From the NCBI GenBank assembly GCA_965178125.1, contig OZ237741.1, positions 310,001 through 374,000 on the forward strand: a stretch of 64,000 bases of DNA, given 5' to 3'. The translations under genes and the position numbers were made by a program. The notes beneath the pieces are model-generated. The model searched no databases. It saw only the letters and a list, made by a program, of their open reading frames with translations, and was not told the origin of the DNA. Below, piece after piece: positions 3,217 to 60,500 of this stretch. The DNA is from Bilabrum cf. latius. Lineage: Eukaryota. Each line of letters starts with the position of its first letter. Position 1 is the first letter of the stretch.

Positions 3217-4474
3217 ATGAGTGGAGTGGAAGCGCGAATGTATGATGATGAGTCTGATCAAGCCAATGAGACTAATAATGTAGACTCAGGACGGATCGAA
3301 GGAAGCTCAAGTTGCGCATTGATCGAGAGCATTCGCCTTGGTGACTTGAAAGCCGTCCAAGAAGCACTTCTCGAGGAAGCAGTTGACATAAACGAAACAT
3401 GTATCGTGCGTGGTGTTAGAGTTGAGCATTATCGCTCGCATCCGCTGTTCGAAGCCTGCAGAACGAACGACGTCTCCATGGTTGAAACCATCCTCCGCCG
3501 CCCGGATTGCGACGTGAACGCGCCTGCAACCTCCGCGAAGATATCCTCACTGGCTGATGCTTGTAACCGTGGGGCAGATCGAATTGTAGAAGTGCTGCTC
3601 GATGATCCAAGAACCGATCCGTTTGCCGGCAGCAAGGTAAGGGCCATGCGCTGAGCTGCTTTCGGCCGAAAGCCATGAATATCGCAGCCAATTCTGATTA
3701 CGCCAATTCATCAACCGTGCTCGGCGCTCTTTCTCGCAGGATGTCTTGCTTCCGCTGTAGTTTGCCTGCATGCGGGGCTTCCTGCCAATCGTGGCGTTGT
3801 TTATCGAGCGAAAGTTCGTGCCGTTTGCCCACGAAATGCTCCTCTTGTCGGCGGCGCGCGATGCAGAGCAGCCCGCTGTGGAGCGCAAGCTCTACGAGTA
3901 TTTCCTGAGCCAGCGTGATCCCGACGGACTGCCTCCTCGGCTGCAGGTAGAACGTCTCTGGCTCGCATTCCACGAGGCAGACAGGGATGGGAGCGGGGCG
4001 CTGGAGCTTGCCGAGCTCAGGCCGCTGGCGGCGCGACTCGGCTGTCCACTAACTGAGCCAGAGCTGAGCGAGGCCATTCGAGCCCTGGACACGGACGGTG
4101 ACGGTACCGTGGACTTTGACGAGCTGGTGGCGTTCTGGCTGGGAGGTACCGAGGGGCTGGATCCGGAGGTGGTGGAGGCTGTAGAGCAGGTGAGGACAAC
4201 GGCACGGGAAACGGGTGGGATGACGAGAAAGAGGCCGCGGTCCGGGGCGGACGTTCTCGCGGCCACTGGGGCGACGTCTGGGGCGGTTGGGCAGGGGGTG
4301 GTTGGAAAGGAGGGGGAGAATGTGTCAGGTGCGGAGTGGGCCCCCGGGCAGGGCGGTTCGCCGGATCCCGCGGTCGTGGTTGAGACTGGGGTGGGTCCCA
4401 TGGCGGCCACTAGCGGGCAAGGCTTCAGGTCTACGCTTGCGGGGGCAAGGGCCCCTGACACGAACTACGGCTGA
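3217..4474 (+). CDS. Ankyrin-repeat protein with paired EF-hands, 2 exons
   Basis: Ankyrin repeats (HPLFEAC..DVSMVETIL...DVNA). Intron 3637-3739 (GTAAGG...CGCAG). Exon 2 starts DVLLPL*FACMRGFLPIV (TAG 3758). EF-hand loops DRDGSGALELAE and DTDGDGTVDFDE. Ends in TGA. Confidence 0.85.
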
Positions 4475-4496
4475 TCTGATCTGATCTGATCTGATC
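4471..4496. repeat. (CTGAT)5 microsatellite overlapping the stop codon of the ankyrin/EF-hand gene
   Basis: ctgatctgatctgatctgatctgatc read directly from the sequence. Confidence 0.9.
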
Positions 4497-4774
4497 ATGG
4501 GGCTGGATATTGGCCTATAGAATCGTGAGAGAAGGTGGCGTACTATGGCTAGAGAAGGTGGCCTACTGTGGCTGGTCAGGGTGTTGCAACAATGCTGTCG
4601 GCTCGGTATGCTTGGGTCGGTATTATACGTGCCTTCGATATCTGCAACTATTCTTGTTATGATCAACTGTGTTCTTGGTATATCACTTAATGCACTGGGC
4701 TGAGCTGAACCGTTCGGGACTTTGCTGTGCATGCCGAGCCCATGCGATGTTGGGCCTGGTCACTGGCCATGCCG

Positions 4775-6517: not shown

Positions 6518-6770
6518 GGAATTGCTACTTCTGTGGCTCTCTACCACAAGCCTTTTTGATTGAGGTGTGTGTCGTGTCGGCAAAAACTGGCGGTAATTCG
6601 GAATCTTATTAAAACCTGGCTAAAGGCTAAACCGGAAGTCAAACAATCCATTGAATCAGCAAAAATGGCAGGAATCCAGACTTGCAGAATAAATCTGAGC
6701 TTTCCCCGGCTTACTACTGCACATTGATCCATGGAGGCAGCTGCCATGAAGATGGCTGGCATTCGATCCT

Positions 6771-7391
6771 TCAGGGTCTGCCTCTGCTGGACGCCATTGC
6801 TGCCTCCATGCCCATCACTAGAATAAAGGAGCAAACCATGACCGTGGCCAAACCAACTAGCGACATCTTATCGGTAGTCTCTGTCTCCTTCATGTTATCT
6901 GATGGCTTTTCAGGCTCCACTGCCTGCTCGGGCTCCACTGCCTGCTCGGGCTCCACTGCCTGCTCGGGCTCCACTGCCTGCTCGGGCTCCACTGCCTGCT
7001 CGGGCTCCTCTGCCTGCTCGGGCTCCTCTGCCTGCTCGGGCTCCACTGCCTGCTCGGGCTCCACTGCCTGCTCGGGCTCCACTGCCTGCTCGGGCTCCAC
7101 TGCCTGCTCGGGCTCCTCTGCCTGCTCGGGCTCCACTGCCTGCTCGGGCTCCACTGGCAGCTCAGGATTCACAGGCTGCTTGAACGCAGAGTCCTCATTG
7201 CCTGAACCCCCAGCAGGGTTGATATGCCCAAGCTTGTTGACTGCTTCACTCAGAGTATCATGCGCATCAGAAGCTGAAGGCTGGATTTCACCGGGTCGGC
7301 TCCCTCCTGTTGCAATTACCATAGCAATTAGACACAGTAGCACCAGTATCAATGTAGGTTTGCGGTTTTCACCACGGTAGAGCCGAACCAT
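6771..7391 (-). CDS. Small putative surface protein with (V/E)EPEQA hexapeptide repeats
   Basis: N-terminal hydrophobic stretch LILVLLCLIAMVIA, 13 EPEQA repeats, and C-terminal hydrophobic stretch LVGLATVMVCSFILVM. Ends in TGA. Confidence 0.75.
   Translation of the reverse strand: MVRLYRGENRKPTLILVLLCLIAMVIATGGSRPGEIQPSASDAHDTLSEAVNKLGHINPAGGSGNEDSAFKQPVNPELPVEPEQAVEPEQAEEPEQAVEPEQAVEPEQAVEPEQAVEPEQAEEPEQAEEPEQAVEPEQAVEPEQAVEPEQAVEPEQAVEPEKPSDNMKETETTDKMSLVGLATVMVCSFILVMGMEAAMASSRGRP
6912..7157. repeat. 18-bp coding tandem repeat, 13 full copies plus a partial copy
   Basis: gggctcc(a/t)ctgcctgctc repeated head to tail. Confidence 0.97.
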
Positions 7392-7815
7392 GACTGGGCC
7401 TGCGAACACAGGTTAGTGTACTGTTGAACCCACCGCTGGATCTGTGGACATTGCGGCGAAGTTGAGCACTCTGATACTTCGATCCTTCTCACAATATAAT
7501 CGATTGGCTTGGATTTGTTTGTTTGTACCTTATGTACTTTGCAAGATGTTTGCTGGTTGATTGCCGATTCGGGCAACGTGGCCAAAAACCAGTCCACAGA
7601 AGGGAGTTGCGTGTAGTACTAGGGCCTACTCGAAGGTTTGGCCGCCTGCAGGCCCGGTCCGGGCTGGCAGCGCCGGCGGTGGTCTAGGCTGCCTAGAGTG
7701 CCCCTGGTCAAGCTTCAGACTTCCCGAATCACAAGAACCGCATAGCTAACTAACTTCCAGCCTTTCCGCAATCGCAACAAGGCAGCAGTCGTCAAGTCAA
7801 ACAAAACTCTGCTGT

Positions 7816-10800
7816 TCACTCCTCGCCCGTGCCCTCGAATAGCTCAGAGAGCTCTGCGAGTAGCACGGCGGCTTGCGCGGCATTCAGGCCACGATTGGAA
7901 GAACCCCCATCCAGGTCACCAAGCATGGCATCGCTTTCCTCTTCAAAATCATCACCGTCCTCATCGTCCTCATCCTCACCTGCCGGCCCCTGCCCGCCAG
8001 GCCGCATCCATTTCGGAATTTCATGCAGCACGTCCTCCCTCACCTCCTCCCTCAAGCTGGCCACGTACTCCATCAACCGACTCGCTGAGACACCAAGTTC
8101 CCTCACACCGACGACAGAAGCGCGCCGGCTTCCCCCCCTACTGGACTTGCTTCGCTGCTGGTGTTGCTGCTGCTGCTCTAGTTGTGGGCGGCTCTGCACC
8201 CTCCGCCGTATGTCACACAGCGCGCCCGAAGGACAGCACAGGAGCCACGCAGCCGAGGTACACTCCCAGCACGATGCGCTGCTTCCCGACAACTCATCAA
8301 ACTGCCAGTCAGGCTGCATACGCCTCCTCCGATCACGGGACCCATGCCCAACCCCGCTGCCACCAATGCCGCCTCCCCAGCTACTGCCCCCTGAATCATG
8401 TGCCCGGAAGCAGCATGGCGCCACCAGGGATGCAGCTGCCATGCTGACGGGCGGCAGCGGGACCCGGCCCACCGAGTCCCTCAGTCGTGGCAGCCCAGCG
8501 GGGGATACGTGTTCCCTGGCCGCCACGAAGGATGACATGGGGTTGGCTTTGCGCTTGCGACGCACCGGTCCCGTTCCTGGATCCGTGCCTCCTTGGGCAC
8601 CTCCGTCACCATCGTCGCCATCGTCTGCGTCCTGCTCCCCGCCCGCCGCCTCAAACAGAGCCAGCTGCAGCTCGTTTCGCCTCGACTCGGCTGCGGTGTA
8701 CTCATACGATGAGACGATCACACCTTCCACGATGCTGGTCAGAATGAGCGTGACCCCGACATAGTAGAGGATGAAGTAAATCGAGCACCACCGCGAGGTC
8801 TGGTTCACTGCCGGGTACAGAATCTAGTTCCAGTTGTTTGAGGTGGCAATCTGGAACAGGGCGAGCAGAGCATACGGCAGACTGCGGAAGGTGTACACCT
8901 GGCCCTGACCCTCGTCGTCGTCGATGCCGGCATCATCGTCGCCCGTCACTGGCTCCAGCCCCCCCTTGACGTGCCCGAATAGGCGCAGCCCCACGAGCCC
9001 AAACGAGTATGTGACGGAGCAGTACAGAACCGTAAAGATCACGCTGGCACGCAGCACGCTGGACGAGGCCCTGGAGCCCGTGATGTTGTCGATGAAGCCA
9101 CGCAGTGACGGCACCACCACAACCAGGCGCAGCACCCTGAGCGCTCTGGACACCTCGAGCCAATCGACGTGCAGAGTGGACAGATGCTGCTTGGCACCGA
9201 GGAACAAGGCGACCGAGGCAGTGAGAGACCACACGAGAACGACGAAATCGAATGCGTGCCAGCCGGAGTTGGCCAGCCATCGCACAATGCCGCCGGTGGA
9301 AGCCACCCTCACCGCGACCTCAATCGCCTACAGCAGCAAAAACACCACAGCTGCAAGATCCATCATCGGGACCCCTTTGCCCCTGCACTCTTGGGACCAC
9401 CTGCCGTGCGATGCAAGGCACTTCTCGTAGTCCACCTGCTGTTGCACCGTCCAGCCACATGCAGTTACAGCAGAACCTACGGATATGGCCAGTGCAAAGT
9501 AAGGAAACCAGGGCGACCACACCACCTTGCGCGCAGCGGCCCGCAGCCGAGCGTGCCCCACCTGGCCGCTAGACCCACCCAGCATGCAGCACCAACCGAC
9601 CCCGTCCTGCTCGTTCCTGCGCGTGTGTTCCGTCCGGACTGCGTCTGCGCTGGCCCTCCCGGTCCCCTGCAGGCTGTGCTGCTCCACGGCGAGAGGCACC
9701 GACTGCTGCTTCGTCATGTCCAGCAAGGACGAGTCAATGTGCAAGGGCTGCCTGCCGGGAGACTGGGGTGCAGAGACGCCCATGCCGAGGCTTTGCTGAG
9801 GGTCGCCAGGGCCAGCTTCATTACCGGCGTTGTTCTCCTGCCGCTGGTACCGTCGCCCGCACACCTGCCAGCAGGGCACTGCCTGCATGCCCTGAGGAGC
9901 GATGCCCACGAACTGCGGAAAGGCTAGGAATTCCACCGCCGACAGCATCCCTTCCCCGCCCTGTCCATCCTCCACGTCGAGCGCTGCAAGGAGTGCCCTG
10001 GCCGCTCGCGGTCGCATCCCATGGCTCCTCCACAGCAGCTCCTCGAACACCGATCGCACGACAGGGTCGTCCACAGGAAGCACGCCTGCCTGCGAACACT
10101 CCCTCGCAAACGCAGCCTCCCTCCAGTCGCCCGGCAACCGCTGCCATTCTGAAGGGTCTTGATCTGGCTCGGTGAATCGCTCGAACGGCACAGAGGACCG
10201 TGTCTCCTGTTGGCTGCGGCGCCGATGAGTCTCCGCGCTTCTCTAGCGCTTGCCGGACTCCATCGGATGCCCGTCGGCAGACGAGTCCGAGTCTTCCTCG
10301 CGGATGTGCCTGCGTCCGACCGAGGAACTCCTGCCACCCAGCCTATGCTGCCGCAGCTGAAAAGCGTTCGGGGCCACCGGCATGCGGCTGAAGAACTGCG
10401 GTTTCCCTCGCTAGGCGGACTTCTCTGCCTCCCCAACGGCACGAGGCAGGTCGCTGGGAGGCAGCGGCACTGTGGTGCTCAAGCCCACCTGCCTGTGCTT
10501 GCGTCGCTCCACGAGGTATCCAGCTACCTTGAATGCTGCTACCAGAGGAAGGTAAGCCTTGACCCGTAGCCGTCTCCTAGATTTCTCTTGCACGTCGTTG
10601 TACAACTCGAACGTGATTGCCAGCAACAAAGGAATGATCACCCACAGAAAGACCCAAAGCGACGACACGAAGAACAGCACGGCCACCACGGGCCTAGCCG
10701 CGAAGGCCGGATAAAACACCGTGGGATACGACTCGGTGCTCGACAGGATGTTGATGGCCACCGCAGCGGCCCCGAACGAATCGAAGTTGTCGCCAGTCTT

Positions 10801-12888
10801 GTGGTACCCGTCCACCTGCTCGCTGGAGAACAGCTGGCAGCCTAACGTCGCGTAAAAGAACACAACGACGCCGAACAGTGCCGCAAGCGGCACCATGGCT
10901 TGCAGCGTGCGCGACACTGCTGCCAGCTGTCTCCGTAGATCAGGACTACGCACAATGAGCAGCAGAGGGCGAAGGATCCTGCTCCACCGGAACGAGGACC
11001 TTACAAAGAAGAGATAGTACAGCACCCAATCGAGAGCGCAGTAGATCAGGACAATGAAGGCAGCATTCTCCCATTTCTTGTCTTGGAACATGAGGAAGCT
11101 CTGCGGGAACCCGGAGCACGCTCGCGCGCAAGACGCCGGTGGTTGTTGTGCCTTGCCCCGGCCTTGAGCAGCATCCGCGAATTCGCTGGCAAGCAAACCT
11201 TCCTCAAGTTGCACGTAGCCGGTGCTCGCTACGGGCTTCCGGTCTTCATTTCCTGCACTCGCGCACCCACAAGCCCTCGCCATCGATTTCCACGGGCGCC
11301 TTGGGTCTGAGCACGGCCTCACGAACAGCTCAGCCACAGCTCGCATGTACTGATCTGTCGCCAGTACAACCAACAAAGCAGCCTCGATTGATCCGACGGC
11401 CCAGCTGAACTTCGGGTTTGACCGGGCGGGCACATGAGTCTCGTGCTCGAAGAATGCAAGTGCCATGAGACCCACAGCTGCCAGCGTCATCACGTGTCCC
11501 CAAAGGTCGGCAAGAAAAAGCTTTGCAAACGGATGCTGCGGAGAAACCAGATCGGTTTCTCGGCTGGCATCAGCATCAGCCATCAGCTCGACCGCGACCT
11601 CAAACAGCTCGTCATCCTTGCTGTGCTCCAGCAAGGCTCTCGGGGTGTTCAAATGCCCGCTGCCAGCCCCACCACCTGGAGTTGTTCCTTGCTCTCGATT
11701 TGACGATGGGTCCCCGCCAGCACGCTCCAAAGTCTGAATAGACCGGTATCGCTCCGGGACACCCGGCGGGACAACAGCTGGGCCGTGCCCGCCAGTCCTA
11801 AGCCCCTTCACTTGCTGCTGTTTCTGCTGCTAATGAGCGCCGCTGAGGCCGATCGATGTTGCCCTCGCTCTCTGCACGCTCTGCTCTCGGGCAGCTCGAA
11901 CGGCCTACAGCGCCTCATCGGCCAGACGACGCGTATCGTTGCTGGGCTGGACTCCGCCTCGCGAAGCCCCTGCTGGCTGGCAACTCGAGCAAGCAGCGCC
12001 GCAGCACGGTACGCAGCAAGCGCAAGCGATGCTGGCAAGGCCGCAGAAGCCCAGCGCGCGCTCCGCCTTCCTCTGCTGCAGCCGCGCGGCAAGAATCTCG
12101 ATGAAATCATCCTCCGCAGCAGCATCTTGTTGCCTCGTGGGAACCTCGTCGCCTGCTCTAGCGCCATCCTGTGATGCATCACGCCAACCACCTTCGCTGC
12201 TGCCTTCGCTGCCATCGCTGCCGCCATCCGCCAGACCTGCCTACTGCGGCGCTGAATGCTCGCCCTGATCGGTCGCTCTAGACATGCCAGACCACTGCTA
12301 CACGGGCGCTCCAACAGATGCATCGGACTTCACCGTGTCCAAGTCGGCTCCCTATCCGTTCCGACTTGGAGGCTGGGGCCACTGTGTTCTGGGCTGCATC
12401 GCCTCTGGGGTGTCAATGCGGCTGAGCTCTCTCACAGGTGGGAGCATGGTTCTCATGCTCGGGCTCTGTGGAGCTCCAGCTTGACCTCCCGTGGTCCAGG
12501 TGCCTCCATTTGCTGCTGCAGTGCTCGGTGCATGAGGACGGGCCGGTGGACTTGGTATCCGGGACGGCTGCGGCGCGTGGGCTGGCTAGCCGAGCAAGCC
12601 TTTCATCTGCCCTGCAGATGCTGTTTGGCTCCGAGAAATCTACTTGGATTCTTCGTTCGGAAACCCATCCTCTGCGAGACTGCTAGCATGTTCGCCGGCA
12701 GCGGAGCCTCGGCGCTCCGGTCGGGAGTCCGTGCTGCCGGACAGCTTTGCCTTCTCAAGTCGTTTCTAGCGCAAAATTGATCTCATCCGCATTGGTCCTA
12801 CAATTGACGCCCAAGATACTCCCTGCTTCCTGCTCATCCGGCGAGACCGCACCCGCTGCATCTGATTGGCCCTGGCATCATCGTCCAT
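7816..12888 (-). CDS. Two-pore channel (TPC-family 2x6TM cation channel), ~1690 aa, intronless, 12 in-frame TAG
   Basis: Two voltage-sensor/pore repeats: S4 segments RWSRILRPLLL and RALRVLRLVV; pores NFDSFGAA..ILSSTESYPTV and TFRSLPYALLALFQIATSNNWN. Track ORFs 7816, 8824, 9328 and 10411 share one frame, broken only by TAG. ATG 12888 is the first ATG after an upstream TAA. Ends in TGA. Confidence 0.88.
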
Positions 12889-13225
12889 CGAGCCAGCAGT
12901 GGGCAGCGATGAGGAGGGATCTGCATCTTAAATAAAAGGGGCATATGACTTCAAATGAATACCATGTCATGACGATTGTCATCATCAGACGAAACCATGC
13001 AAAGGCAGACCTCGAGAAGCTATCGAGCCTTAGCAGAACATACCTGGTGGGGAGCTCTCCATATCGGTTCAATCCTGGGCAGGATCTGCCCGTTCGAGAT
13101 TGAGCTGTACTATTTGTAGCTGCTAAGTGTAGTTTTGTGCTGAAAAGTGGAGCACTGTTGATCTTGCTGGGCTCCGAATTGGAGCACACCGCCTCGGCAA
13201 GCAAAATTGGTCGCAGTCAAGCAGC

Positions 13226-15660: not shown

Positions 15661-15906
15661 TGAGGCTGCCGGCGGTCGTGCTTTTCCCGCAGCACGGCGG
15701 CGCCGCGTGTGATGAGCGCGGTTAACAAAGCCTGGATATGGAGCTAGCTGCGCCTATTCCTAACGGATTAGTGCCACCTGATTAATAAAAGTAGCAAATA
15801 CTTCCCAGCGTTTCAGGGTTTTAGGCGTCTTACATCGTCATCTCAATTTTTTTGGTCGATTCGAATTACGTCACACCCTGCACAACACGTGACGTTGAGC
15901 AAAAAT

Positions 15907-18900
15907 ATGCATGTAGACGCGTTTGCGCCGTACCAGGCAATCAGAAAGGCTATCAGTGGATATGCATCAGTCTTAGTTCGTACCCCAACGACTTCTTGTA
16001 TGTCTATTTTGTTTGCACTGGCGGCAGCGGCGATGGGTGGAGTACTCGCACAGGACTTCTGGCGGCTTAATGTTTCAACAGCCGCATTTGTGTACGCAAG
16101 GGGGAACAGCACTAGGTTTAAATTGTAGAATTCTCAGTAGTTTGGCCCTTAGCCACGAATGTCCACGATCATTGTAACTCCGAGAGGCAACAATGGTGTG
16201 ACGCCGGCCGGAGCCTTCGATAAACGAGCCTTTCAGGTGCTGTATGACATCGAAGATGCCGTCACTACCATTCAAATAAGTCGTAATGGTATTAAATGGT
16301 CCTTCCCTGACTTTTGTCAGAGGTTGTATGGCCCTGCTTCGTCATGTAGCGAACTCTCTGCAACGCAGTTCTGGCCAAACAGTGGCTTCATGCAGAACGA
16401 TAGTGCTATTGGATACACCGTGGGAAAATGTACCTCGGGTAACATTCCATGTCAGGATTCGAAAGGGCAGCCCATTGAAGTGGCGTATAATTTGGGGCGG
16501 GGGTTCACGGTGGATGGCGGCAACGTGACCTCTGCCCCGGCGCTGTTCAGCACTTACAGCCTCAACGCTGTACCAGAGGCCGAGGCATCCGGTGGAGAAG
16601 CAGGCGGCAAGGCAGAGGACGAGGAGTACCTCGCCGCAGCCATTGCCTGGGAACGAGAGTGGGTCTCTAGGGTACGGCGGATCGCGAAGACGCTGGATTC
16701 GGAAGGCTCCCCATTCCAGATTGCCTACGGCGCTGCGTCAAGCCTCGAGGACGAGGTGTCAAATGAAGCCCATGCCGACGTGCCGATCATCGCGCTGAGC
16801 TACTGCATCATGTCGATGTACCTGGTTGTGGCGCTCTCTACCCTGCAGAAGCCCCTGCTGTCAACGAGGATCCTGGTGGCGACAGCCACTGTCGTTGGAG
16901 TGCTGGCTGCACTATTGCTCGCCGGCGGCATCGCTCTGGCATCCAAAGTAGACCTAAATCCCATCGTTTTCCAGGTCCTTCCCTTCCTATTGCTCGCGAT
17001 TGGTGTTGACTCTGTGTTTCAGCTGCTCGATGCATACCAGAGGGAGCAGGCGAAGTCGTGGGGCGAGCCAATGCCAAGCGGGATTCCAATGGCAGTGCGC
17101 AACCAGGTGGACCGCCTGGCGGGGCTGGAGGGCGCTGCTGCTAGCGCCGGGGCTGCTTGCTGCGGCACAAGCTCGCCGACCTTTTGTCTGCCAAAGCAAC
17201 GCGGGTACAGGCACCGCTCGCGGCCCCAGGCTGGGGTCGTTCGCAAGCCGACAAGCGCTTTCTAGCCGGCGCCTATCCGAGAGTCAGACAGCACGCGGCA
17301 TGCAGCGCACGATGCAGCTGTATCGATTCATTCATTGGAGGAGTTTCACGCGGAAGCTTTCGGTCGCGCTGCGATGGAGGCAGGCCAGACCATTTTCATT
17401 TCGAGCCTGGTGCAGAGCCTTGCGTTCATGGCGGCGTCCTTCATCCCCTTCGAGGCGATGAGTGCCGTGTGCGTTTACTGCTCCATTGGAGTCGCCTTCA
17501 ACTTCGTGTTCTTTCTCCTGCTTACCCTACCAGCTGTCGCCTTGGACATCCAGAGGCAGCTGGGCGGCAGGCTGGAAATACTCTGCTGCGAGGCGTGCGG
17601 CCGCGGGCCAAGATCGTCGCACACTGCGAGCAGAATCGCAAACACGACCGTACGTCCGTCCAGGCTGTACCAGGATCTTGCCAGGATCGACGCCGAGGAG
17701 AAGGGCCAGGGTGACAGCAGGGGGCCGCAGCAGACGATCCCTGCGGCCGACGTCGAAAACGATTTTGACAATGGTAGCAGTTCGAAGTTCGAGGCAGAGG
17801 AAGGGACTGAGGTGCGGGCGTGCACTGCATGGGTTCTATCTGGCCCATTCTCGTACCTAATGTCACCGTCGTGCAAGGCAGTGCAGTACGTCATCGTGCT
17901 CTGTTTTGTAGGGTGGTGGGCCTGGAGCGCCACCCAGCTGGCGTCTGTCCCTGTCGCGTTCGAGCAGATCGACCTGCTCCCTTCAAGCTCGTACATGTAC
18001 AAGTTTTTGCGGGCTTAGGACAGCTTTCTGGGTCTCGGTCCTCCCCTCCAGCTGGTCGTGAATGGGTCTGATTTGAGCCAAGTGGAGCAGCGCAGGAGCT
18101 ACGAGGCCACGTCGGCCGCCCTCCACGCATCTCGAGCCACTCTTGAGCAGCCGCCATTTGATGCCATTGGAGACGCAGAGTGGTACACCGACTACTGCTC
18201 ACCGGTTATAGCTGAAAAACTTCCATCCAATGCAACGTTTGGTCAGATCACGAAGCATTTCGTATCGGCTGACTGCCTAGACGTGTGTGGCCTGCCGCCG
18301 TTTGCCAGCTGCCAGGTGTTCAACGAGACCGCAAGGTGCCCGGCGTCGCTAAATAACCTGGACTCGGCAGAGTGTGCGTCCCCGTACGGCCTGTGCATCG
18401 CAGCTCTCTGCAACATCCGTGGGATTCACGCCACCAATCTGCGGTGGACCAGCGACAACAAGACCATCGTTGCGTCCCGTCTGCAGACGTACATGCAGCC
18501 GCTCGAGTCTATGGACGACTATGTGGGTGGAATGAAGGCTGCTTGGCAGATTGTTGGAGATGCTCGTGCAGGAGGCCATGCTCTTGCATCTGCCGCAAAC
18601 CAGCTGCCGAACCGCACCACCGCGTTCGATGATTCCGTTGAGCCGCTAGCACCAGGTGCCAAGGAAGGCGTATACTCGGACTCGGTTTATTTTGAGTACT
18701 ATCAGCAGTACGTCGTGCTTGTGGGGCTTGCTTGGAGACTCTTTGGATACGCTGGTGCTGCGCTTCTGGCCCTGCACACGCTGTACTACCTCGATGTAAG
18801 GCAGAGCCTGATGCTGCTTGTGGTGGTGTCTGGCACCATGCTGTCAGTGGCGGCCTCCCTCGCCTGGTGGGGCATCGGGCTCAACTCTACGACCGTGGTG

Positions 18901-19497
18901 AACCTGATCGGGACCACAGGTGTGGTCATTGAGCTGTGCGTGCACCTGCTGTCCTTTGTATTCAACGGCGCCCCCAAGCTGCTCGCCAGCAGGATGGCAA
19001 AGCACACTGGAAGCCGTGATAGCGCCACCGTGGACCTTGATAGAGCCGTCCTACTGCTCGCATTCGTGGATGGCGGTGCAACCGTGCTCTCCGGCATCAG
19101 CACCACCAAACTGCTGGGCCTGGCTATTCTTGCGGTCGCTCCAAGCCGGCTTACCCGAGTGTACTTTTTGCGGCCGTTCCTGGCTGCAGTGGCATTCGGC
19201 ACCCTGCACGTGTTGGTATTCGCCCCGAGCGCGCTGCTGTGCGTGGCTGATGCAACAAAGGCAGTTGGCTCTTGTTGCTGCGGTGCAGACGCTAGTTGGA
19301 GCTGCCTGGGTCCTCGGCGCGACGGGCAGGGCAACAGCGCCACGAAGGCGTCAAAGCTTGTGCAGGCCAATGACGTGTCGAGATCGGTGGGATACGGTGC
19401 CCTTCGCGACGAACAGGACCCCGCGTTTGGTTCTGGGCAGTCCATGTACGTGGAAGTGGAGGCATCGGCTGTTGCGAATGAGTGGGACATGAAATGA
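15907..19497 (+). CDS. NPC1/Patched-family (RND-type) sterol-sensing-domain membrane protein, ~1196 aa, 5 in-frame TAG
   Basis: SSD motifs SLEDEV and VLPFLLLAIGVD; DLLPSSSYM and GPPLQLVV; VYSDSVYFEYYQQY; GATVLSGISTTKLLGLAILAVAPS..RVYFLR. Four track ORFs in one frame are joined across TAG at 16126, 16138, 16150, 17263 and 18016. Ends in TGA. Confidence 0.9.
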
Positions 19498-43119: not shown

Positions 43120-44924
43120 CGGTCGCGGTCGCCGCCAAGTACAGAGCGTAAGCCGTCGAGCCTGCCGCCGCCCCTGTCCCGGTCCCTTGAGTCGCCCCTA
43201 CCGCGGTAACGATCCTAGTCTCTATCACTGCTGTACCGTCTATCCCTATCCGTATCGGACCCTTTTCCACCCAGAATACCGCTAAGTCCATCCTTGCTGC
43301 GGTCCCTCTCGCCCCTTCGCCTGCCTCCGTCGCTACTGTCATCACCCAGCAAGTCGCCAAGCAGGCCGGACTTGCCTCCCTTCGTGCCCCTACCGCTGTC
43401 CCTTTCCCTGTCGCGGTCCTGGTCGCGGCTAGACCGTGGAGGCCGCCCCCCCCGGTCCTCTTTGCCCAGCAAGCTGCCCAGGCGATCGCCAGATCCACCC
43501 CTGGATGGCTTCCTGTCTCCTAGCAGCCCATCAAGCGCCTTTGGTGACCTGCGATCCGGCTTTGCATCGCTGTCCGAGTCGAGGCTGTCTCCGCCCAAAA
43601 GGCTACCGAGGCCGGAGCCTTTCTTTTTCTGTGCATCTAGCTTATCCTTCGCGCTCCGCAACCCGCCCTTCCTATCCTTGTCATCGTCAGCACCGAGCAG
43701 AGAGCCCAGCAGGCCGTCCTTGCTGCCTGTTTTCTTGCTGGAAGACTCGCCGTTATCCCCGGCCTTGCCTTTCGCCTTACTAAGCATGCCCTCTAGAGGG
43801 TCAGTATCGCTGTCGGAGCCTTTCTCTCGCGACTTCCTCCCTTGTTTTCCGGCGCTCACGCTCACGGCGCCCCCGCCCTTCGTCTTGCCTGGATCGCCAA
43901 GCATGGAGCTGAGTGCATCCTGACCGCCTTCGGAGCTACCACCACCGGACCCGCCTTTGCTGCTTCCCTTATCCTTTGCGAGCATAGTAGCTAGGTCAGA
44001 AGCCCCTTTCGTGGGTTCCTCCTTCTCTTCAACCTATCTCGCCCGGGCTAGGGGCACGTTCCTGAGCTTCTCGCCTGTAGTGTCCAGCTTCACGTCCACG
44101 CTGCCATCCCGGTGCACCCTGTACACGGTGCACTTGATCCACGGCGAGCTGGACAAGGAGCTCCGTTTTACCTCAATAGTGTCCTGCAGCTTGTAGGGCT
44201 TGCTGCCTTTCTTCTTTGCTGCAGCCTTGTCGCCATCCAAGTCCACTGTGGACGGCTCTGACCCGACCGTGCCGGCCGTATCTGCGCGCTTCATGGGCTC
44301 CTTCGGCCCTGCCTTGTCGCCCTTGCCCCCGCCTTCTTTCGCATCGGAGGCGGCTGCGCCGCCATCAGCGGCCTTGGCCTCGCCCTCTTTGAGCTGGAAC
44401 CTGTCCTTGTTTTTGATTGTCAGAGTGAGGGCGCCACCCGTGTCCTCGCGAGTGAGCCGCAGAGTGTCCCCGGTGCGGCTTTCCACTCGCACAGGGACCC
44501 ATCTCCTGCCGAATTTGTACTGGCCAGTGCTGCCGGCTGAGGCGTCGGGGTGCAGTGAATCGGTAGAATCCGAAGCTTTGATCGACGTGGCTGCCTCACT
44601 AGAATCCGCCTTTGCTGCCTCTGATTGAGAAGACGGGGGACCAGATTGTGATGCGTGACACTTTCGAGCAATTCGCTCAAGTTGGCTCCATGAAATTCGA
44701 CCGCCAGCAGTGATGCCTAGCTCTCTGCAGATTTCAGGCAGGCTTGGACCACCCCTCATCGAGATACCAGCTTTCCGGAGCGTACCAGGGACTCGGTGGA
44801 AACCTATCTATTTTTCGCTACCAGACCCATCATCGTGCAGTTTGCCAACAGACCTCGACTAATACTCGCGTTTGAGTGCAGCTAAAATTTTGTCCGGCAG
44901 CTCTGGAAGGGCAGCTGACGCCAT
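25692..44924 (-). CDS. Giant intronless multidomain protein (~6410 aa): EF-hand(-like) units, Tudor/Agenet-like domain, RD-rich tract, three PUB-like domains, helical repeats
   Basis: 24 consecutive track ORFs (26583 to 44034) share one frame and all end in TAG; hand-checked gaps contain no TAA/TGA. ATG 44924, TGA 25692. PUB-like segments KVLGKVIENPDEPKWRRVNADSRAF, RYVTNVLANPRDSRAWRVPCRNPVF and EMLDRIIDGPRDDARCWR. EF-hand DIDRDGQVGINDF. Confidence 0.85.
43083..43117. repeat. (CCTGTC)n hexamer repeat encoding an Arg-Asp dipeptide run on the minus strand
   Basis: cctgtccctgtccctgtccctgtccctgtccctgt; translates to DRDRDRDR in the giant-gene frame. Confidence 0.85.
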
Positions 44925-45225: not shown

Positions 45226-48089
45226 ATGGAGAAGTCTGCGTCAGTTGATGTTCCCCCCACTGCTGGCGGAAGTTCGAGCTCTGGCAGCCTTGGTTAGTGA
45301 TAGACATTATACGTACAGCTACCAGAGCATTCAAATTGACAATTAGTTTGCTGTGTGCCTTTTATGATTGATTTTTTCCACATTTGCGTTCGAACACTGC
45401 GCGCAGAAAGCCAGCAAGTGCTCACAGCCCTGCGCAACCAGGTTGAGTACTATCTGTCGAAGGAAAATTTGGCAGGAGATCAGTTTTTGGTTCAGAAAAT
45501 GGACCCCAGCTGCTATGTTGACCTAGCGGTCCTCGCTGACGTGAGAAAGTGGCCAGAGAATTCAGCTGCACTGGAGAAACAATGGCTGTAGAATCCCCTT
45601 CTGTGCTGCATTCCAAGTCCCGCTTGACGCAGTTCCCCAAGCTGAGAGTTATGGGACAACCCATCGACCGCATTCGCCAGGCTCTCGCGGGCTCAACCAC
45701 AGTCGAGCTCAGCGCCGACGGCAGCAAGGTCAGGCCTGTCCTGCCAAAGCAGCCGGCGGTGATCATCATCCGCGACGCGCCCGCAGGCACGACTGCAGAG
45801 AACATACGCGAGGTTTTCTCCGTGGACGGAGCCAAGGAACCGGAGAGCATCAAGGAGGAAATGAAGGGAACTTTCTTTGTCACCATGCAGTCGGACGAGG
45901 ATGCCCAGGCGACAACCCAGGCATGGGAGGCGGCCAAGCCCGTGGTGCTCGGCGAGCCTCTGCACTATCGCCTCAAGGCCAAAAACCACCTGAGAGCCCT
46001 GCTCGGCGGGGCACAGCCGGCGGCAACCAGTGGCCTTGCCGGTGCTGCCGTCCACGCAAAGCCGTTTGTTCCCACCGCAGGCGGAATCCCGACCTTCCGC
46101 CCTAGGGTAGACGCTCGCGCATTTGTGCCTCCGGGGGGCGTAGGGGCTGGGGCTGGCGGGTTTGGTTTCGGTGGAGGGGGCGACTTCAGCGCGATGGGTG
46201 GCGCACCGCAGGGTGGCATGGGCTTTGGTGGCGGCAGCGGCAGCAGTGGCGGCATGGGTTTCGGCGCTCCAGGAGGCATGGGCTTCGGATTTCCGGGAAT
46301 GGGTGGCATGGGGGTCACGGGCGGGTTGCGTGCAGCCACTGGAACGACAGACGGTGCTATCGCCCTGACCGGCCAGCAGCAGCTCCCGTCGGGCGCTCCT
46401 GCCAACATCCCTGCGTTCGCCAACCTGCCTGGCTTTGCAGGGAATCCGGCGCTGGCCGCAGCCGCGGTAGCAGCGGCCGCAGCGGCCGCTGCCGGCGCCC
46501 AGCGCGCCTCTGCCCCCAAGCCGGCATACACTGTGGACGAGCTCATGTCGGTATTTCGACGCATTGACAAGGGAGAGCTGAGCCTGCCTCACGAGATGAG
46601 AGGAGATAAGGACGCCGCCGTCGTGCGGAAGACCCCGGACATGGGTCTTCTCGTGCGTCAGCGCAGTGCCAGTATGGACCAGGTGGTGCAGAAGGGCAGG
46701 CCCAGGATTGCTTCGGTCGCATCGGTCGACTCTGTGGATTATAACAACGTCATGTACGGAGAGGAGCGCAAGAGGCGCGGATCTTCCATGGCGCAGGACC
46801 TCGCAAGAGCTGCGAGGGAGCCGCAAGCACCCCCAGGCCAGGTGGCCGCCACTCTGGCGGGATCCGCCGCCTCGTCCGCAACGGCAGGATCTGGCGGCAT
46901 GCCTAACTTTTTCGGGATGACGCCGCCGCCTGGCGCCATGATGGTGGGAGGTGGAGGCTCCGGCGGATGGGGCTCTCGGCAGTCGCGCAAGGGAGGCCGG
47001 AAAGGAAACGCCGCGGGGGGGAAAGGATCTCCCGCTCAGGGGCAGGGCAAGCGAAAGGGGGCCGCTGGTGGTAAGGGCGGGAAGGGCGCTCACAACCGGG
47101 CCCCGCAGGCGCCTGCAGCCTTCCAGAAGCGAAGGCAGTCTGGAGCAGCCGATGGAGCGCAGGGCACACCTCCTCCCAGGAGCGGGGGGAAGGGCTCTGC
47201 TGCGCGTGACAGGTCGAACAGCTGGCGGGACCAGCTAGGCTCGCCTCAGGGCGGCACAGGCGCGAGCACGACCACTCCCGGAAAGGCGGTCAATGGGGCA
47301 GACAGGGGACGCCAGGGGTCTGCGAGCAGAACGCTCGCATCGTCGGCGACAGCAGCTGCAGGCGGATCCAAGGCAGCCGTCCCGCCTCAGGCCGCAGTGC
47401 AGGGGCAGGGCAAGGGCAAGTCCGGATCGGGGGCCCCATCTGCTGGCGCCAGCAACGGGTCTGCGCGAGGAACTCCGAGCAAGAGCACGGGCGGCGCAGC
47501 CGCCACAGCTCCTGCGGGTGGCTCGGGATCGACGGGAGGCTGGAAGGGCATGATCCAGCGCGCTGGCCCAGTTCCGAAGTTAGGAGAGGGGACTCCTCGA
47601 CGGAGCAAGCCAGCCGGAGCACCTGCCAGTGCTGGCGGCGCATCCCCATCGGAGACTGGTGGTGCGGCTGCGGCTGGCGGCAGGGGTACCCCGAGCAGGC
47701 GCAAGGGCGGCAAGGGTGGCAAGGGTGGCAAAGGGGACAGGAAACGAGCGGGTGCTGCCGCTGAAGGGGGGGCCAAGAGCGGCGGCAAGGGTGAGGGTCG
47801 GTCTGGGAAACAGTCCAGCGGGAAAGGCTCCGCAGGTTCTGGCGCTGCGCCCGCGGGTGCCTCGCCGGTAGCGGCTGCCAACTCAAAGCCGGCCGGCAAG
47901 ACGTGGCGCGCAATCGCGACTGGTTCCGGATCGCCCGGCGGGGCTTCCCCTGTCAAGCCAGTCAAGGTGGCTGCCGGTGGCGAGAGCAAGCCCGTGGTAG
48001 GGAAAGCCCATGAGGCTGGTGGCAAGGCCCCGGCTGCTGTTGCGGCCAAGGAGCCAGCCGGTAAGGGCCCGGAGGGCTCGTGGCGGTGA
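45226..48089 (+). CDS. La-related RNA-binding protein (LARP4-like: La motif, RRM-like domain, G/A-rich disordered tail), 3 exons
   Basis: La motif LRNQVEYYLSKENLAGDQFLVQKM...FPKL...VRP; RRM-like VIIIRDAP...TFFVTM; PAM2-like AKPFVP and ARAFVP. Introns 45293-45406 and 45541-45632. Ends in TGA; no TAG. Confidence 0.85.
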
Positions 48090-48255: not shown

Positions 48256-51200
48256 TCACGAAGTTTCCATCGCTTGCTAACCGGATGCAGCTCCACCTTG
48301 TGCAGCAGATCCACTCCCAGCAGCGGCAGATGAGCTGCTGCTGCTGCTGCTACTGCTACTGCTGCTGGAGCTGGAGCTCACTGTAGCGACCGCTCCAGAT
48401 CTGTCTGCGGACGACTACTAGTGCTGCTGCGTTGCCAAACTAGCAGCCCTCTCCAGCTTATCCTAAACGCTCGAATCGTAGTGCTCCGGCATTTCGCAGA
48501 CCCACTCCCATATTTCACCGTTCCTTGGCTTGGCATCTTCGCATTGCTTGACTACCTAGCGACGGCTCTCCTCTTCGCCCTGGTCTCGCTCGAAAGCTAG
48601 CCAGAAAGCCCAGCCGTCCCCGTACCGTGGATCAATCGCAACAGCGCGGGAAAACCATCGCCTGGCCTTGTCGTAGCTTCGGTCTCTCCAAAGGAGAGCA
48701 GCAACCCTAGTGATCACGATCGGATTGCGGTCAAGCGTCCGGGCCGCCTGCACCGCTACGCCCTTCTGCTGTGCCCGAGGGGTCCGACTGATCTTCTCTG
48801 CCCACAGCAAGCCGCTCTTGGGGACCGCCTTGAGTCCTTTGGCAAGCAGGCTGTCGCCGGCCTTCTCCTGGCCGTGTCTTGCCTCCAGCCTGACACCCTC
48901 CACCCATAGCGCCTCGAGGTCAGGGTGCCTCTGCCTCCCGCTCTCAAGCAGAGAACGTGCTTTGGCGGGGCCGCTCCCCAGCCCCCCTTCGGAAACTGGT
49001 CTCTCTAGCAGGCGCGCTGCTCCGAGCCACACCCCTGCCGCTCCCGGGCACGCGCGGATCCCACGCTTATACGTTTCCATGGCATGCTGCACCTTGCCCC
49101 GTGAAGCAGCAGCCGCAGAAGAGGGCTTGCCATTCGCTAGCTCCATCGCCTGGGCCTCGTACAGCCGCCCTAATAGAATCCACAGGTCAGCGGCCTTGCC
49201 AAACTTGCTGATCCCGTCCGTGATCACGGCCTCGGCGTCTCCCAACCTGCCCTGCGACCTAAGAAGCCGCGCTAGCTTCAGCCACACTTCTACTGACGCT
49301 GCCGATGACTGCGCTCGGCGGAGAAGCGCCTCGGCGCGATCTGTGTGACCGGCTGACTTCTCCAAGCTGGACGCCGCGAGCCACAGAGGGCTGGACTTCG
49401 GATTGGCCCTGATCGCCTCTGCTAGCACCTTCCTGGCATCATCAAGGCTGCTCGATTCACGGAGGTGGTGCGCGTACAGCATCCAGAGCTCTTGCGAGCC
49501 TGGGCACGCCTGCACCGCCTCCTGCAGCAGCGCTGTGGCCGCCTCAGGAGTACCGTCTCGGCGCTCGAGGGCGACTGCCTGGGCCCACACGTTCTTCTGG
49601 TCGGGGTACGCCTTGAGGACCGACGCGTAGCACGCCCTGGAGCATGCGACAAAACCCTGCATCTCAAACTGAGCTGCATCGGCCAGCCACGTGCGAAGCC
49701 TGTCTGCTTCCTCAACCCCGAGTCCCACCGTCGCTCGCACGATTGCAGCCGCAGTGAGAGGACTGCTGGCACCCTCCGCCTTCCTGGCGTGCTCAAGCCA
49801 GTTGGCCCTGCTGATGATGGCTCCACGGGCCGACAGAGATTTCACCGCCATTCCTACCACCTTGTCAATGTTGGCCGCCTTGCCCTTGGCCTCTTCTAGC
49901 TCCGCTGCTGTGATCCAAATCTGCGGTTCAGTTGGGTTCGCCTTCCTTGCCTTGTTTAAGACCTTGCGAGCGTTCTCATAGGTCTCAATTCTGGCGAGAG
50001 CAAGCCAAAGCTCGACCGCGCTGGGGATTTGCTCCACGGCTGCGGCGAGGAGCAGCCTCGCTTCTGCCTCGTCTTCGAGCTCGACTGCCGCTTTCCAAAG
50101 CTGCACGCTACCAGGGATACTTTCGATGGCAGCGCGCAGCACTGCCTTCTTGCCAGCAGCGGTGTTTTCGAGCTCCGACGCAGTGAGCCAGATCTTGACT
50201 GAGTTTGGCACATTGCGCACTGCCTCTGCCAGGATCCCTTGAGCCTGATCAGGGGGCAGTAACGTGGCGGCTTCCACCCACACGTCCTCGCTGGAAGGGC
50301 ACGCCTTTGTGCCGTCGAGGATGAGTTTACGTGCCGCGGTTGTCTTGCCCACACTCGCCTCAAACCTGGCTGCTGTGATCCAGGCCATAGGCTGGGACGA
50401 GTTGGTCGCAACCAGGCTGCGGAGCACTTCTCTGGTCTGGTCTACGTCAGTGACAGAGCCGGACGCGGCGGCCCGTGTCATGCTCGTCTGCAGCTGGGAC
50501 GCGTACCCAGCGGGGTCGAGCACGCTCTGCCCCCCAACCTGCGCCCCTGCTGCCGCCAGCGTGCTCTCCAAGCGCTTTGCCCTGGCATTATTCAATGTAA
50601 TGGATGACGGTGTGGTGCTCATCGTCGATGCTAGGCCCGTGGCGGAATCGGTGCCAGCACCGGAAGCAGCCGCTGATGAGGAGGCAGAGCCACCGAGGGG
50701 CACGCCATCGGGCGCCTCTTGCGCGCTAGAAGGCTGCCCTGGCGGCTGGGCGGCAATGCCAGCGCCTTGTAGTAATATGCTGTCTGGCACTGGGACGAAC
50801 GACTCTTTCTGGCTCCCGCGGTCCTCTCGATTTCGAGCTCTCGCCCCGCTTTCCTCGGGAATCGATTCCCAGTCTGTCATGCTCATGGATGACAATGATT
50901 GCTTTGCATTGGCATGTTGTTCTGCAATGGAAATCGCACCTGTTGCGCGGCTTCGCTTGGCGCTTTCGCCCATCCTGCTGCTAGGACCTTGAGCTTCATC
51001 GTCTGCGCCCCTCTTTCGCTTCCTCCTTCGGACGGCCTCATCCACACTGGCATACACCTGGTCCGCCTCCAGGTCTTCTGCATCTGCGCCTCTTGGTTGC
51101 CCGCCCTGGCCGACTGGATCGGGCCCGTCTCCGCCGCTACCATCCGCAAGGCCAGTTGCCCCGCGTCCGCGTCCAGGCACGTAGCCAGTCGGTGGTGCAC

Positions 51201-51424
51201 CAGTCCTCAATACACCAGCGGGGCCTATATCTGCTTTAGTTACAAATCCAACTGCGCCTCTACCGAGTCCTGGGACGTATTTTCTCTGCGATGAGACGGG
51301 CAACGACAATGAACCGCATCGATCGATGTCAGCACATGAACGCAAATCACCATGTGCAACAGCATCTTACCGGCGCTCGGGCATCAGAGTAAGTATTGGG
51401 AGCTTTGACATTGACACCAATCAT
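48256..51424 (-). CDS. PRP6: Pre-mRNA splicing factor Prp6 (U5-102K), 2 exons, 5 in-frame TAG near the C-terminus
   Basis: Motifs YVPGLGRGAVGFVT, DLEADQVY, DWESIPE and PVPDS, plus HAT repeats. Exon 1 is 51424-51371 and the intron spans 51370-51286. Homology continues past TAG 48556 (CEDAKPRNGEIW, cf. conserved C..AEPRHGE.W) to TGA 48256. Confidence 0.95.
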
Positions 51425-51512
51425 GACACACTTTAAGTAAATTGAATGATATTATTCGAGTTCGCACGGACAGCGGTTGCAACCTGATTCACAGCAGTCA
51501 TCCAACATTCAT

Positions 51513-57452
<5,940 letters not shown>

Positions 57453-57597
57453 GATCTCCTTTTGAACGAGCAAAATGACAATTGAATTTTTTTGAATCCC
57501 ACGCCGTTTCTACCAGCTCCAGCTGTACCCGACTCCTGTACTTAATAAAATCTTTAAGTACAGCGAACAGACCAGAGTGTACTATCCAAACAAGGCA

Positions 57598-60500
57598 ATG
57601 CGCCGGGCGGCAGTACATTGTTGCAGTCATCTTCAAGCTTGGTCACGGCTTTGCGACCAACGGCAGTTCAAGCGACCTTTGCCGCGACACATTGGCCAAC
57701 TAGCGGGCATCTAGTGTTAGCTCGGGCTGGCACATCCAAGGGCGCTTTAGATCGGCTTGATGTCGGCTTGGGACTCTTCGGCCCGGTAGCAAACGCTTGC
57801 TCAGGTTCGCATCGCAGCAAGGCAGCAGACGATCGAACCAGCACACGGTTTAGCAACCCGGCGAAATGCATCCAGCAACTCAAATCAGGTCAAAAGCTAT
57901 GATGGTTAGCTTGGTGCAAGCCATCCATCTCTGGCTAGATTGCAAGGGGTCCCGAGGGTGCAACGGCCCGCAGGGGACCCCACAGATCAGGTCGCTGCAG
58001 CACGAACTCTGCTTGAGAGCCAGTCGTAGCCGCTTAGATCGGGCTCCTATCACTATTCTGAAATGGATGATGCTGCTCACTCTCCTGCTGGTCCTGGAAT
58101 TCACCGGAATCTGACGAAGGGAGGTAGCTACCGCAGTCTCCTCGCCACTGCAGAGCGGCTTCCATCGAGGTCGAAACATTCCCGAGTGTCACTTGACAGA
58201 GCAATACATTCATCAAATGACGGCGCCAAAGGTACTTGGGCAGACCAAAGGGCCGTCGATAGCCACCAGCACAGGGCTGATAGAGGTGACAGGCGCCGAT
58301 ACACAGGTCCATGTGCAGGTGAAATGGTACAGTCCACCGACCATATGAGCTCGAGGGTGGGCCCTCACGATTTGGATGAATCTAACAGTACCGTGTATGA
58401 CGGCACGATTCGAAGCAGCAGAGTTGATGGTTCTATGGCAGGAGCCACGCCGGCTGCTGAAAGGTTGCTGCACTTGCCTGCGCCGTCTGATTCTCTCCAA
58501 AGCTTGCAACTGCACAGTCCTGCAGGAACTATTCAAACTGGTCTTGCAAGAGGTACTCAATTCGACAGGGCTGCTCCAGGTTCAAGGACAAGCGGTCGCC
58601 TCGGTCCTATTGTTCGATCTGGCCGATCGGTTTCGGCTGGCGACGCTTTGCTGCCGAGATCCCAGCACTTTCTGGGCGTTGCGGAGAGATAGAGAGAAGA
58701 CCAATAGCGTCTAGGGGATACACATCCAGGAGATTCGCGCCGGTTGGGTCCAATGGCTCGCCAATAGCCTCGACGCCCGACGCCGTGTGTTCCCGAATAG
58801 AGAGTCGCAAGAGAACCACTCGCTGGGATCCAGCATGAGGACCGGCGAGCAGAAGGTTCGATTGGTTTGCATATGCCTAGGATACATGCAGGATCTAGGC
58901 ATGCTGGCGCTAACAGTGGTCGGTCAAGTGGTGTTGCTGGCAATGCTTCGTTCTAGAGCTCGCTTGGGGCGCAGCAGATCCCGCATGACGCAGATGCCGA
59001 TTCACGAAAGCGGACCCAAGGACACTAGCCCCACATGATGCGACCTTCGACGGAGATATTTGGGGGCAGGCCGCACCCACCAACAGCGAGGGCTTGGACG
59101 GCATCGGAGCAGCACCCTGCGAGCGGCTAGCTGCACATCGGAGACCATGCTGTGGCACCTGTTTCGCCGCTGAAACGAAACGGTCACACAGAGGCCCCAG
59201 CCTAGTCCCAGAGCGGATTTGCTCCATCTTTTATCGGGAGCGAGTCGGCCCCTCTTCACCAGTCGGTGACCCGCAGGTGGGGGGGCGGACTGGGCGAGGA
59301 CATGGAAGAGCGCGATGAGAGTCGCCGTGACGCAGCCTCCGGGCCGCTGGGGCAGCGACTGGGTCCATCTGAGTCTTGGCAGCCACCTGCACTGGGCTCT
59401 CTCCCAGCAGAGAGGCAGAGCGTCGACTCGCGACAGTCCTCCTAGTCGCATACATTCCACCAGTCCGAGGTCGACGAGACTGAGGCGCGGCCTCCCCTCA
59501 TGCACTAGCTATCCATGGAGACTGCAGCCACGGAAGATGCCCCAGTGTGGCAGGGAGGAGATATTCATGATGGAATCAAGGATATGTCTGATGCTATCAA
59601 GTTGCAGAGGCTTCGGGAGCAGTGGAGATAGTCGCAGAGCGAGGCCCAGCAAAGGGTGCATGGACACGGCGACGGCAACGAAGTTGGAGTGTGGAAGAAG
59701 TCGCAGAGTGGTCCAGGAGCGAGCGATGATGAACATTCCAATGACAACGCACCTCCTCGAGTGCCTGGTAAAGACACGATGGCCTCGGCAGTCCGGCGTG
59801 GATCAAGCCTGCTGACTGACGTGTCGGACAGCTCTAGCGATGAAGGCCCCCCACCGCCTCCTCAGTCCACCAGCATCGGGCCGCAAGCAGCTGACCACCA
59901 TGGCCCATCTCCAACAGGACAACGCGGGCTGTAGCGCGGCATGAAGCCCATGGGACTCAGCATGGATGTGGTCCCGCCTGCTGCCGTCCGGAGGGAAAGC
60001 ACCGAAGAGCTCGAGTCTCCCTCGCCCACCATGGCCGCTCGACTGGGTCTGGGTGGCGGATTCGCCGCACCGGCTTCGCCCAGAGGTGCTCTGGTCGATG
60101 CGAGCGGACAGACTGACAGCCAGTCGATGCATTTTGCAAGCCAGCTGCAGCAGCATGCAGAGCAGACCAAGGCAGCTGCGCCCCGCGGCCGTCGTGCCAC
60201 GATTGGCGGCGGGACGCAGGCGGCATCGTCGCTGCTGTCACCTGTGCGGGAGGAGTCGCAGGAAGCGGGCACGAGCGACGACTCGAGCAGCGTGGACCGG
60301 TCGCCGCGATCCCCAGCTGAGTCAGATGCTAGCCCGAAGCTGCATGCTCTCGGCAAGTTGCGTCGATCCAACACCACAGGTTCCGTGCCGTCTGCGAGTT
60401 CACGCTAGAGACCGATCGTCGGATTTTCAAGCCCACCAGTTCCACCGTCTGAACGCGGGCTGTAGCGCGGCATGAAGCCCATGGGACTCAGCATGGATGT

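Follow-up and report, generated by a model that had tools for sequence, protein, structure and literature searches.

What does the codon TAG mean in the genome sampled by contig OZ237741.1 (assembly GCA_965178125.1, Bilabrum cf. latius)? The question is raised by positions 310,001 to 374,000 of its forward strand, a stretch of 64,000 nucleotides that we call the window, whose longest open reading frames (ORFs) emerge when TAG is read as a sense codon. Comparison with its relatives makes it very probable that nuclear UAG is here a glutamine (Gln, Q) codon and that UGA and UAA stay terminators, the pattern of NCBI table 15. The first-pass annotation had favoured the same residue, and the proposal is borne out by comparing orthologues with TAG-carrying relatives at three levels of divergence and not by the motif arguments with which it was made. 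Public data offer at least three such levels, namely identical strains, a genome about 10% diverged in nucleotide sequence, and a relative whose Prp6 protein is 76% identical; across them TAG is either kept in place or swapped with CAG or CAA.

In-frame TAG codons and the residues that face them

With the standard code no ORF in the six frames of the window is longer than 936 amino acids (aa). With TAG as sense there are ORFs of 6416, 2037, 1703, 1629, 1277, 1144 and 1036 aa, and reading TAA as sense leaves ORF lengths nearly unaltered. Twelve gene models, built on ORFs bounded by TGA or TAA, comprise 18,098 codons with 143 TAG, 525 CAG and 224 CAA codons and with neither TAA nor TGA in frame, so that TAG makes up 16% of the glutamine codons if it is read as glutamine. 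In-frame TAG occurs in 11 of the 12 models, including those for Prp6, an NPC1-like protein, an ion channel and a kinase; the gene that we label g849 has none.

TGA works as a terminator, ending 10 of the 12 genes and closing Prp6 both in the window and in a syntenic metagenome locus, L001, that is described below. The remaining two genes end at TAA, and the g849 protein, with the C-terminus ...GSWR in both genomes, terminates at TGA in the window but at TAA in L001. Because TAA terminates genes and never occurs in frame, the code is a UAG-only one and not a reassignment of both UAA and UAG (UAR) to glutamine, a conclusion drawn from few gene ends.

All 11 places at which the first-pass annotation cited a TAG (3758, 8824, 11830, 18016, 27516, the tandem at 48415-48420, 48556, 55212, 58705, 58765 and 62182) do hold one in frame with the neighbours it described, the last of them lying beyond position 59000, where its claim was meant to end. 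Its further argument, that TAG sits beside glutamine, stands in part: Q accounts for 21 of 286 TAG neighbours against 11.8 expected. This rate of 7.3% is like the rate at which Q neighbours itself (6.7%, over a background of 4.1%), and it is weak evidence on the identity of the residue.

That identity emerges from relatives. A HMMER search with residues 4601-5800 of the giant 6416-aa protein against 1.84 billion representative proteins returned 11 proteins. Five of these, at 86-94% identity, are pieces of ORFs from a closer relative that we take to be the ~10% diverged genome of runs X8 and X10. These fragments face window TAGs with Q at six of eight sites and with glutamate (Glu, E) at two, and at every one of the eight 10 to 12 of the 12 flanking residues are identical (Table 1). 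Six Q in eight has a binomial P of 1e-7. In the near-relative alignments Q is kept in 90 of 97 cases, E is kept in 85 of 97 and changes to Q in one of 97, and the log-likelihood of the eight sites is -3.6 for Q versus -11.9 for E or H, a margin of 10^8.

The points at which such fragments stop are also informative. Homologue searches with the 2037-aa and 1629-aa ORFs gave at least three and at least one match, respectively; among the matches listed there and those of the HMMER search, the C-termini of nine near-relative fragments face TAG in the window four times, CAG four times and GAG once. For the 2037-codon ORF the end points are TAG aa 638, TAG aa 1152 and the residue facing CAG aa 1993. 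In-frame stops of the relative therefore coincide with TAG or glutamine codons of the window. TGG, the sole other sense codon one transition away from TAG, is never found opposite TAG in any tally, which argues against a purely mutational explanation.

Scanning metagenome contigs for Prp6 gave one locus, L001 (9137 bp), while the Prp6 scan of genome contigs gave no relative. The gene order of L001 is that of the window: Prp6 (76% identical), a g849 orthologue and the beginning of the giant gene. Unless TAG is sense its ORFs are interrupted; they contain 22 in-frame TAGs and terminate at TGA or TAA. Twenty of the 22 TAGs align to a window residue, which is Q in 11 cases (10 CAG, one CAA; binomial P = 7e-11 against the 4.1% background of Q), G and A in two each, and E, V, K, S and Y in one each. 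At sites of well-conserved context, meaning that at least 8 of the 12 flanking residues are identical and no gap intervenes, 9 of 12 face Q. Likelihoods taken empirically from substitution counts in the same alignments put Q ahead of the runner-up, K, by 10^14 over the 29 window/L001 sites aligned in either direction and by 10^12 over the 14 well-conserved ones. One L001 TAG, at Prp6 aa 258, occupies a column where 117 of 120 homologues carry Q (122-sequence Prp6 alignment). TAG usage per gene turns over quickly between relatives, since the g849 pair has 0 TAGs in the window versus 11 in L001.

On the model of Iotanema spirale, UAG would be decoded by a glutamine transfer RNA (tRNA) with the anticodon CUA, one base from CUG, which would pair with UAG and not with UAA, and eRF1 would lack recognition of UAG while still reading UAA and UGA. 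Panek et al. argued in this way for a tRNA-Gln(CUA) and an altered eRF1 in that species (PMC5304391). The eRF1 gene does not lie in the 64-kb window.

Contrary sites and rival readings

Several observations weigh against glutamine. Where some relative aligns a residue to a window TAG, which is so at 25 sites, a hand tally that uses the nearest relative for each site gives Q at 11, E at four, R at three, T at two and D, S, N, M and K at one each; at the 13 well-conserved sites among them the residue is Q at nine, E at two and R at two. Glutamate is the near relative's residue at giant aa 4971 and aa 5829, and it appears again at giant aa 45 in the comparison with L001, at L001 g849 aa 128 and as the GAG at one fragment end. 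In place of one TAG of the 2037-codon ORF the ~10% diverged relative has AAG (Lys), through an A>T difference seen in both X10 and X8; that relative has 1157 differences, 40 of which were inspected, this being the one at a TAG. The window's own Prp6 TAGs stand in variable or acidic columns, and a TAG in the S1 helix of the channel takes the place of a conserved Phe of Cav channel repeats, which is odd for glutamine. The stops at fragment ends, which are seen as protein sequence, are presumed TAGs. No tRNA was detected in the window or in L001 by ARAGORN or Rfam, and no Rfam family of any kind in the 64-kb window. Distant homologues (NPC1, Cav/TPC, human Prp6) vary too much at window TAG sites to settle the residue. 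The mismatched sites fit a young codon at weakly constrained positions, one that arises from CAG and also through replacement of E or K by Q, and they do not fit any single alternative residue.

We consider it very unlikely that TAG has two meanings, being mostly glutamine and in some contexts a terminator or a second residue. Nothing speaks for this directly; ORFs that are bounded by TGA and TAA would hide a gene truly ending at TAG, the tandem TAG TAG of Prp6 lies approximately where human Prp6 ends, and another TAG lies seven codons before the TGA of that gene. However, the codons of L001 at the tandem are CAG ATG, and past them the Ser-rich tails of the two genomes align, so the tail is translated, and at the four of nine fragment ends that face a window TAG the window frame stays open far past that codon. 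Moreover, TGA and TAA are both present and used as dedicated stops.

Slightly less credible again is that TAG encodes glutamate, a meaning recorded for UAG in one ciliate (PMC11687900) and one that the first-pass annotation had left formally open. In its favour are the glutamates listed above, two of them at the eight near-relative sites, together with the columns of Prp6 aa 937 and aa 968, which are rich in E and D. These amount to a minority of sites: Q beats E by 6:2 at near-relative sites and by 11:1 opposite L001 TAGs, and given how rarely E becomes Q in these alignments, six Q in eight would be about 10^8 less likely were TAG glutamate. The near-invariant Q column that holds an L001 TAG in Prp6 points the same way. 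The leftover alternative is rejected by likelihood.

We assign a still smaller probability to a standard code in which U-to-C editing of the mRNA turns TAG into CAG, yielding glutamine with no change of code. Editing would produce the same TAG/CAG correspondence between genomes, but we know of no nuclear U-to-C editing on such a scale (143 sites in 64 kb), which counts against it. Among the listed runs that hold the window, none is recorded as RNA.

The least probable reading of all, that TAG is some other residue (Leu, Lys, Tyr, Ser or Trp) or that the ORFs are pseudogenes or unspliced introns, can draw on the TAG at the hydrophobic Phe position 9328, the one such case of a hydrophobic column, and on the TAG that is AAG in a relative, but Leu and Trp occur 0 times opposite TAG in any tally, L001 TAGs face a single K, a single Y and a single S, and window TAGs a single K and a single S, other residues are disfavoured by at least 10^8, and up to 6416 codons are open in one frame only, with the relative's differences falling on third codon positions and TAG positions conserved in relatives.

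Gene content and lineage of the host

Prp6 carries a canonical GT-AG intron, and for this reason the host is a spliceosome-bearing, intron-poor and gene-dense eukaryote. The intron (85 nt, phase 0, 51370..51286 on the minus strand) follows an 18-codon exon 1, and both its position and that exon, with its ATG at 51424, are kept in L001 (217-362). The Prp6 ORF taken from stop to stop, that is, without exon 1, has no start codon.

Protein identities were assigned through Pfam and PDB. They comprise Prp6, an NPC1-like sterol-sensing protein, a protein kinase, an EF-hand protein, a cation channel of voltage-gated type with two domains, a giant protein whose sole Pfam match is a PUB domain (aa 1997-2071) and, by a weak match, a folylpolyglutamate-synthase-like (FPGS-like) protein; for several other large ORFs no family was detected. 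Some identities proposed in the first-pass annotation gave way here. The protein at 15664-19497, which had been likened to PTCH1, is NPC1-like (PDB NPC1 E = 1.6e-39; PTCH1 1e-9), and the NPC1 residue aligned to TAG 18016 is Ile. An ankyrin reading of the ORF at 3698-4474 has no Pfam match even at E <= 1, EF-hands alone being found, and the suggested FANCI at 51513-57626 leaves no signal in Pfam (E <= 1) or PDB (E <= 1). It was right that Prp6 48556 aligns with a usually acidic position (A30/E30/D27 of 120 in the column), and mistaken in saying so of the two-pore channel (TPC) position 8824, where the aligned residues are V/D/E/K/N/T, which is variable and not acidic.

Table 1. Genes, TAG codons and glutamine codons of the window discussed in the text (window positions; giant, 6416-codon ORF; flank, identical residues among the 12 flanking)
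Feature	Position	Strand	Observation
Two-domain Ion_trans channel ORF	7816..12927	-	12 in-frame TAG
NPC1-like sterol-sensing-domain ORF	15664..19497	+	7 in-frame TAG
1629-codon membrane-protein ORF	20202..25091	-	15 in-frame TAG
Giant ORF, 6416 codons	25692..44942	-	44 in-frame TAG; terminator TGA
g849 ORF	45540..48089	+	0 TAG; L001 orthologue (3560-6412) has 11 TAG, 4 facing window CAG
Prp6 gene	48256..51424	-	exon 1 51424..51371, exon 2 51285..48259, stop TGA 48258..48256; 5 in-frame TAG
2037-codon ORF, no family detected	51513..57626	-	28 in-frame TAG
1144-codon ORF	57496..60930	+	20 in-frame TAG
Protein kinase ORF	60931..63558	+	5 in-frame TAG
Kinase terminator TAA	63556..63558	+	contigs of the diverged relative cease matching the window at 63554-63556
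TAG, giant aa 4685	30888..30890	-	Q in P0130, a sixth, more distant fragment; flank 11/12
TAG, giant aa 4940	30123..30125	-	Q in distant P0125 (flank 8/12); near-relative P0128 ends one residue before
TAG, giant aa 4971	30030..30032	-	E in P0127 (flank 11/12) and P0125
TAG, giant aa 5025	29868..29870	-	Q in P0127 (89% identical); flank 10/12
TAG, giant aa 5045	29808..29810	-	Q in P0127; flank 11/12
TAG, giant aa 5220	29283..29285	-	Q in P0129 (94% identical), flank 11/12; E in distant P0125
TAG, giant aa 5294	29061..29063	-	Q in P0129, flank 12/12; S in distant P0125
TAG, giant aa 5568	28239..28241	-	Q in P0126 (86% identical); flank 11/12
TAG, giant aa 5809 (KE*EQEH)	27516..27518	-	Q in P0126; flank 10/12
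TAG, giant aa 5829	27456..27458	-	E in P0126; flank 11/12
TAG, giant aa 28	44859..44861	-	faces CAA (Q) in L001; flank 8/12
Window CAG, Prp6 Q280	50527..50529	-	faces the L001 TAG of the near-invariant Q column
Window CAG, Prp6 Q482	49921..49923	-	faces L001 TAG; flank 10/12
Window CAG, Prp6 Q566	49669..49671	-	faces L001 TAG; flank 11/12
Tandem TAG TAG, Prp6 aa 983-984	48415..48420	-	L001 has CAG ATG; Ser-rich tail beyond aligns in both
TAG, aa 1762 of 2037-codon ORF	52341..52343	-	AAG (Lys) in ~10% diverged relative (A>T, X10 and X8)
TAG, channel S1 helix aa 1200	9328..9330	-	conserved Phe of Cav channel repeats

For all the size of its genes, this genome is very compact. The FPGS-like ORF ends with a tandem TGA TGA, and the ATG of the NPC1-like gene follows on the same strand about 50 nt downstream (15658-15712); the remaining intergenic gaps measure 146-700 nt. 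The 1144-codon and kinase ORFs share a frame, with one TGA (60928-60930) between them, and we take 57496-63558 to be two neighbouring genes, in which case the kinase would start at the ATG at 61099; the alternative is one gene with an in-frame TGA. Within the 1144-codon ORF a 531-nt internal duplication (~150 residues) carries TAG at the equivalent place in both copies (59932-59934 and 60463-60465). The ends of the giant ORF are of RD/RS-rich low complexity, and orthologous fragments of it exist in at least two relatives. Around 13 tandem copies of a 69-bp unit at 5058-5937 would give rise to 23-aa repeats if the minus-strand ORF 4775-6655 is the coding one; an array of 18-bp units occupies 6920-7152, and several overlapping ORFs are open in this part. 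Long poly-Ser runs lie at 51982-52081 in the 2037-codon ORF and at 48334-48351 in the Prp6 tail.

Among the matches listed, named Prp6 homologues reach 39-44% identity at best. In Prp6 trees (FastTree, IQ-TREE) the window and L001 share a very long branch with a stem of 1.51 changes per site, and they stand beside diatoms and environmental sequences, apart from fungi, animals and plants (Shimodaira-Hasegawa-like approximate likelihood ratio test, SH-aLRT, 96), a position that we do not take as a placement. Runs under three coded organism labels (A, B and C) contain the stretch 52082-64000, and the window is present in the DNA runs X1-X4. Where compared with the window, runs X5 and X6 (labels B and C) show no differences; that they are of RNA type is a guess, and they provide no test of editing. 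The ~10% diverged relative is present in runs labelled protist metagenome and organism D, and an algae-metagenome run contains about 8% of the sampled words. The organism may be an associate or a contaminant of other cultures. The chances are evenly balanced that it belongs to an undescribed GC-rich, gene-dense and intron-poor clade, which would have acquired its UAG-only-to-Gln code independently of ciliates and fornicates and may lie near stramenopiles.

Known reassignments of UAG and what this one means

Glutamine is the commonest meaning of a reassigned UAG, and for that reason its identity here is the least surprising outcome. The variant is of a rare but already known type. Reassignment of UAG alone to glutamine is described for Iotanema spirale, Protocruzia tuzeti and two phyllopharyngean ciliate lineages (PMC11687900), and of UAR for many ciliates, Hexamita, Streblomastix, Ulvophyceae and Amoeboaphelidium protococcarum (PMC11687900, PMC5304391, PMC6299283). 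Our search of the literature, with subscription journals and closed supplements outside its scope, gave no report of UAG-to-Gln for a stramenopile, a labyrinthulomycete or a GC-rich non-ciliate lineage.

The closest likeness is to Iotanema spirale (Fornicata), in which UAG alone passes to glutamine, UAA and UGA stay stops and the same mechanism is expected (PMC5304391). Iotanema, a presumably unrelated lineage, is known from a transcriptome, whereas the present case is seen in genomic DNA of ~60% GC with few introns; no fornicate is among the listed Prp6 homologues. Protocruzia tuzeti and the phyllopharyngeans have the identical codon table (PMC11687900), but no ciliate is named among the 120 Prp6 homologues listed, and here large genes lie on a 64-kb contig stretch. 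In the UAR-to-Gln codes (NCBI table 6) a stop codon likewise became glutamine, but here TAA is in frame 0 times in 18,098 codons and ends genes, including g849 in L001. Amoeboaphelidium is an aphelid parasite of algae, and some of the runs that hold a relative of the window are labelled algae or protist metagenome; the Prp6 tree, which holds no aphelid sequence, nevertheless separates the window from the sampled fungi (SH-aLRT 96). The rhizarian exLh (UAG to Leu) and Scotinosphaera (UAG to Ser) are also UAG-only, with UAA still a stop (PMC11687900), but Leu is absent here from all 29 L001-aligned and all 8 near-relative sites, and no tally has Ser more than once. Finally, crAss-like and other phages using code 15 read TAG as glutamine in the same way, as a viral trait (PMC9523058), unlike the cellular nuclear genome with spliceosomal genes considered here.

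Gene callers that apply the standard code would shatter the genes of this genome, and public protein collections hold them only as fragments lying between TAGs; translation with TAG as glutamine brings back whole proteins, the longest of 6416 aa. Few nuclear codes give UAG and UAA different meanings; PMC11687900 lists a rhizarian, Iotanema, Scotinosphaera, Protocruzia, some phyllopharyngeans and one oligohymenophorean. The present code adds a further case of this split, probably independent of the known ones. With genomic DNA and several relatives at hand, changes in tRNA(CUA) and eRF1 and the rates at which TAG codons are gained and lost would become open to direct study, and if the organism does represent an independent clade, it would offer a genome-level system for how UAG and UAA become uncoupled.

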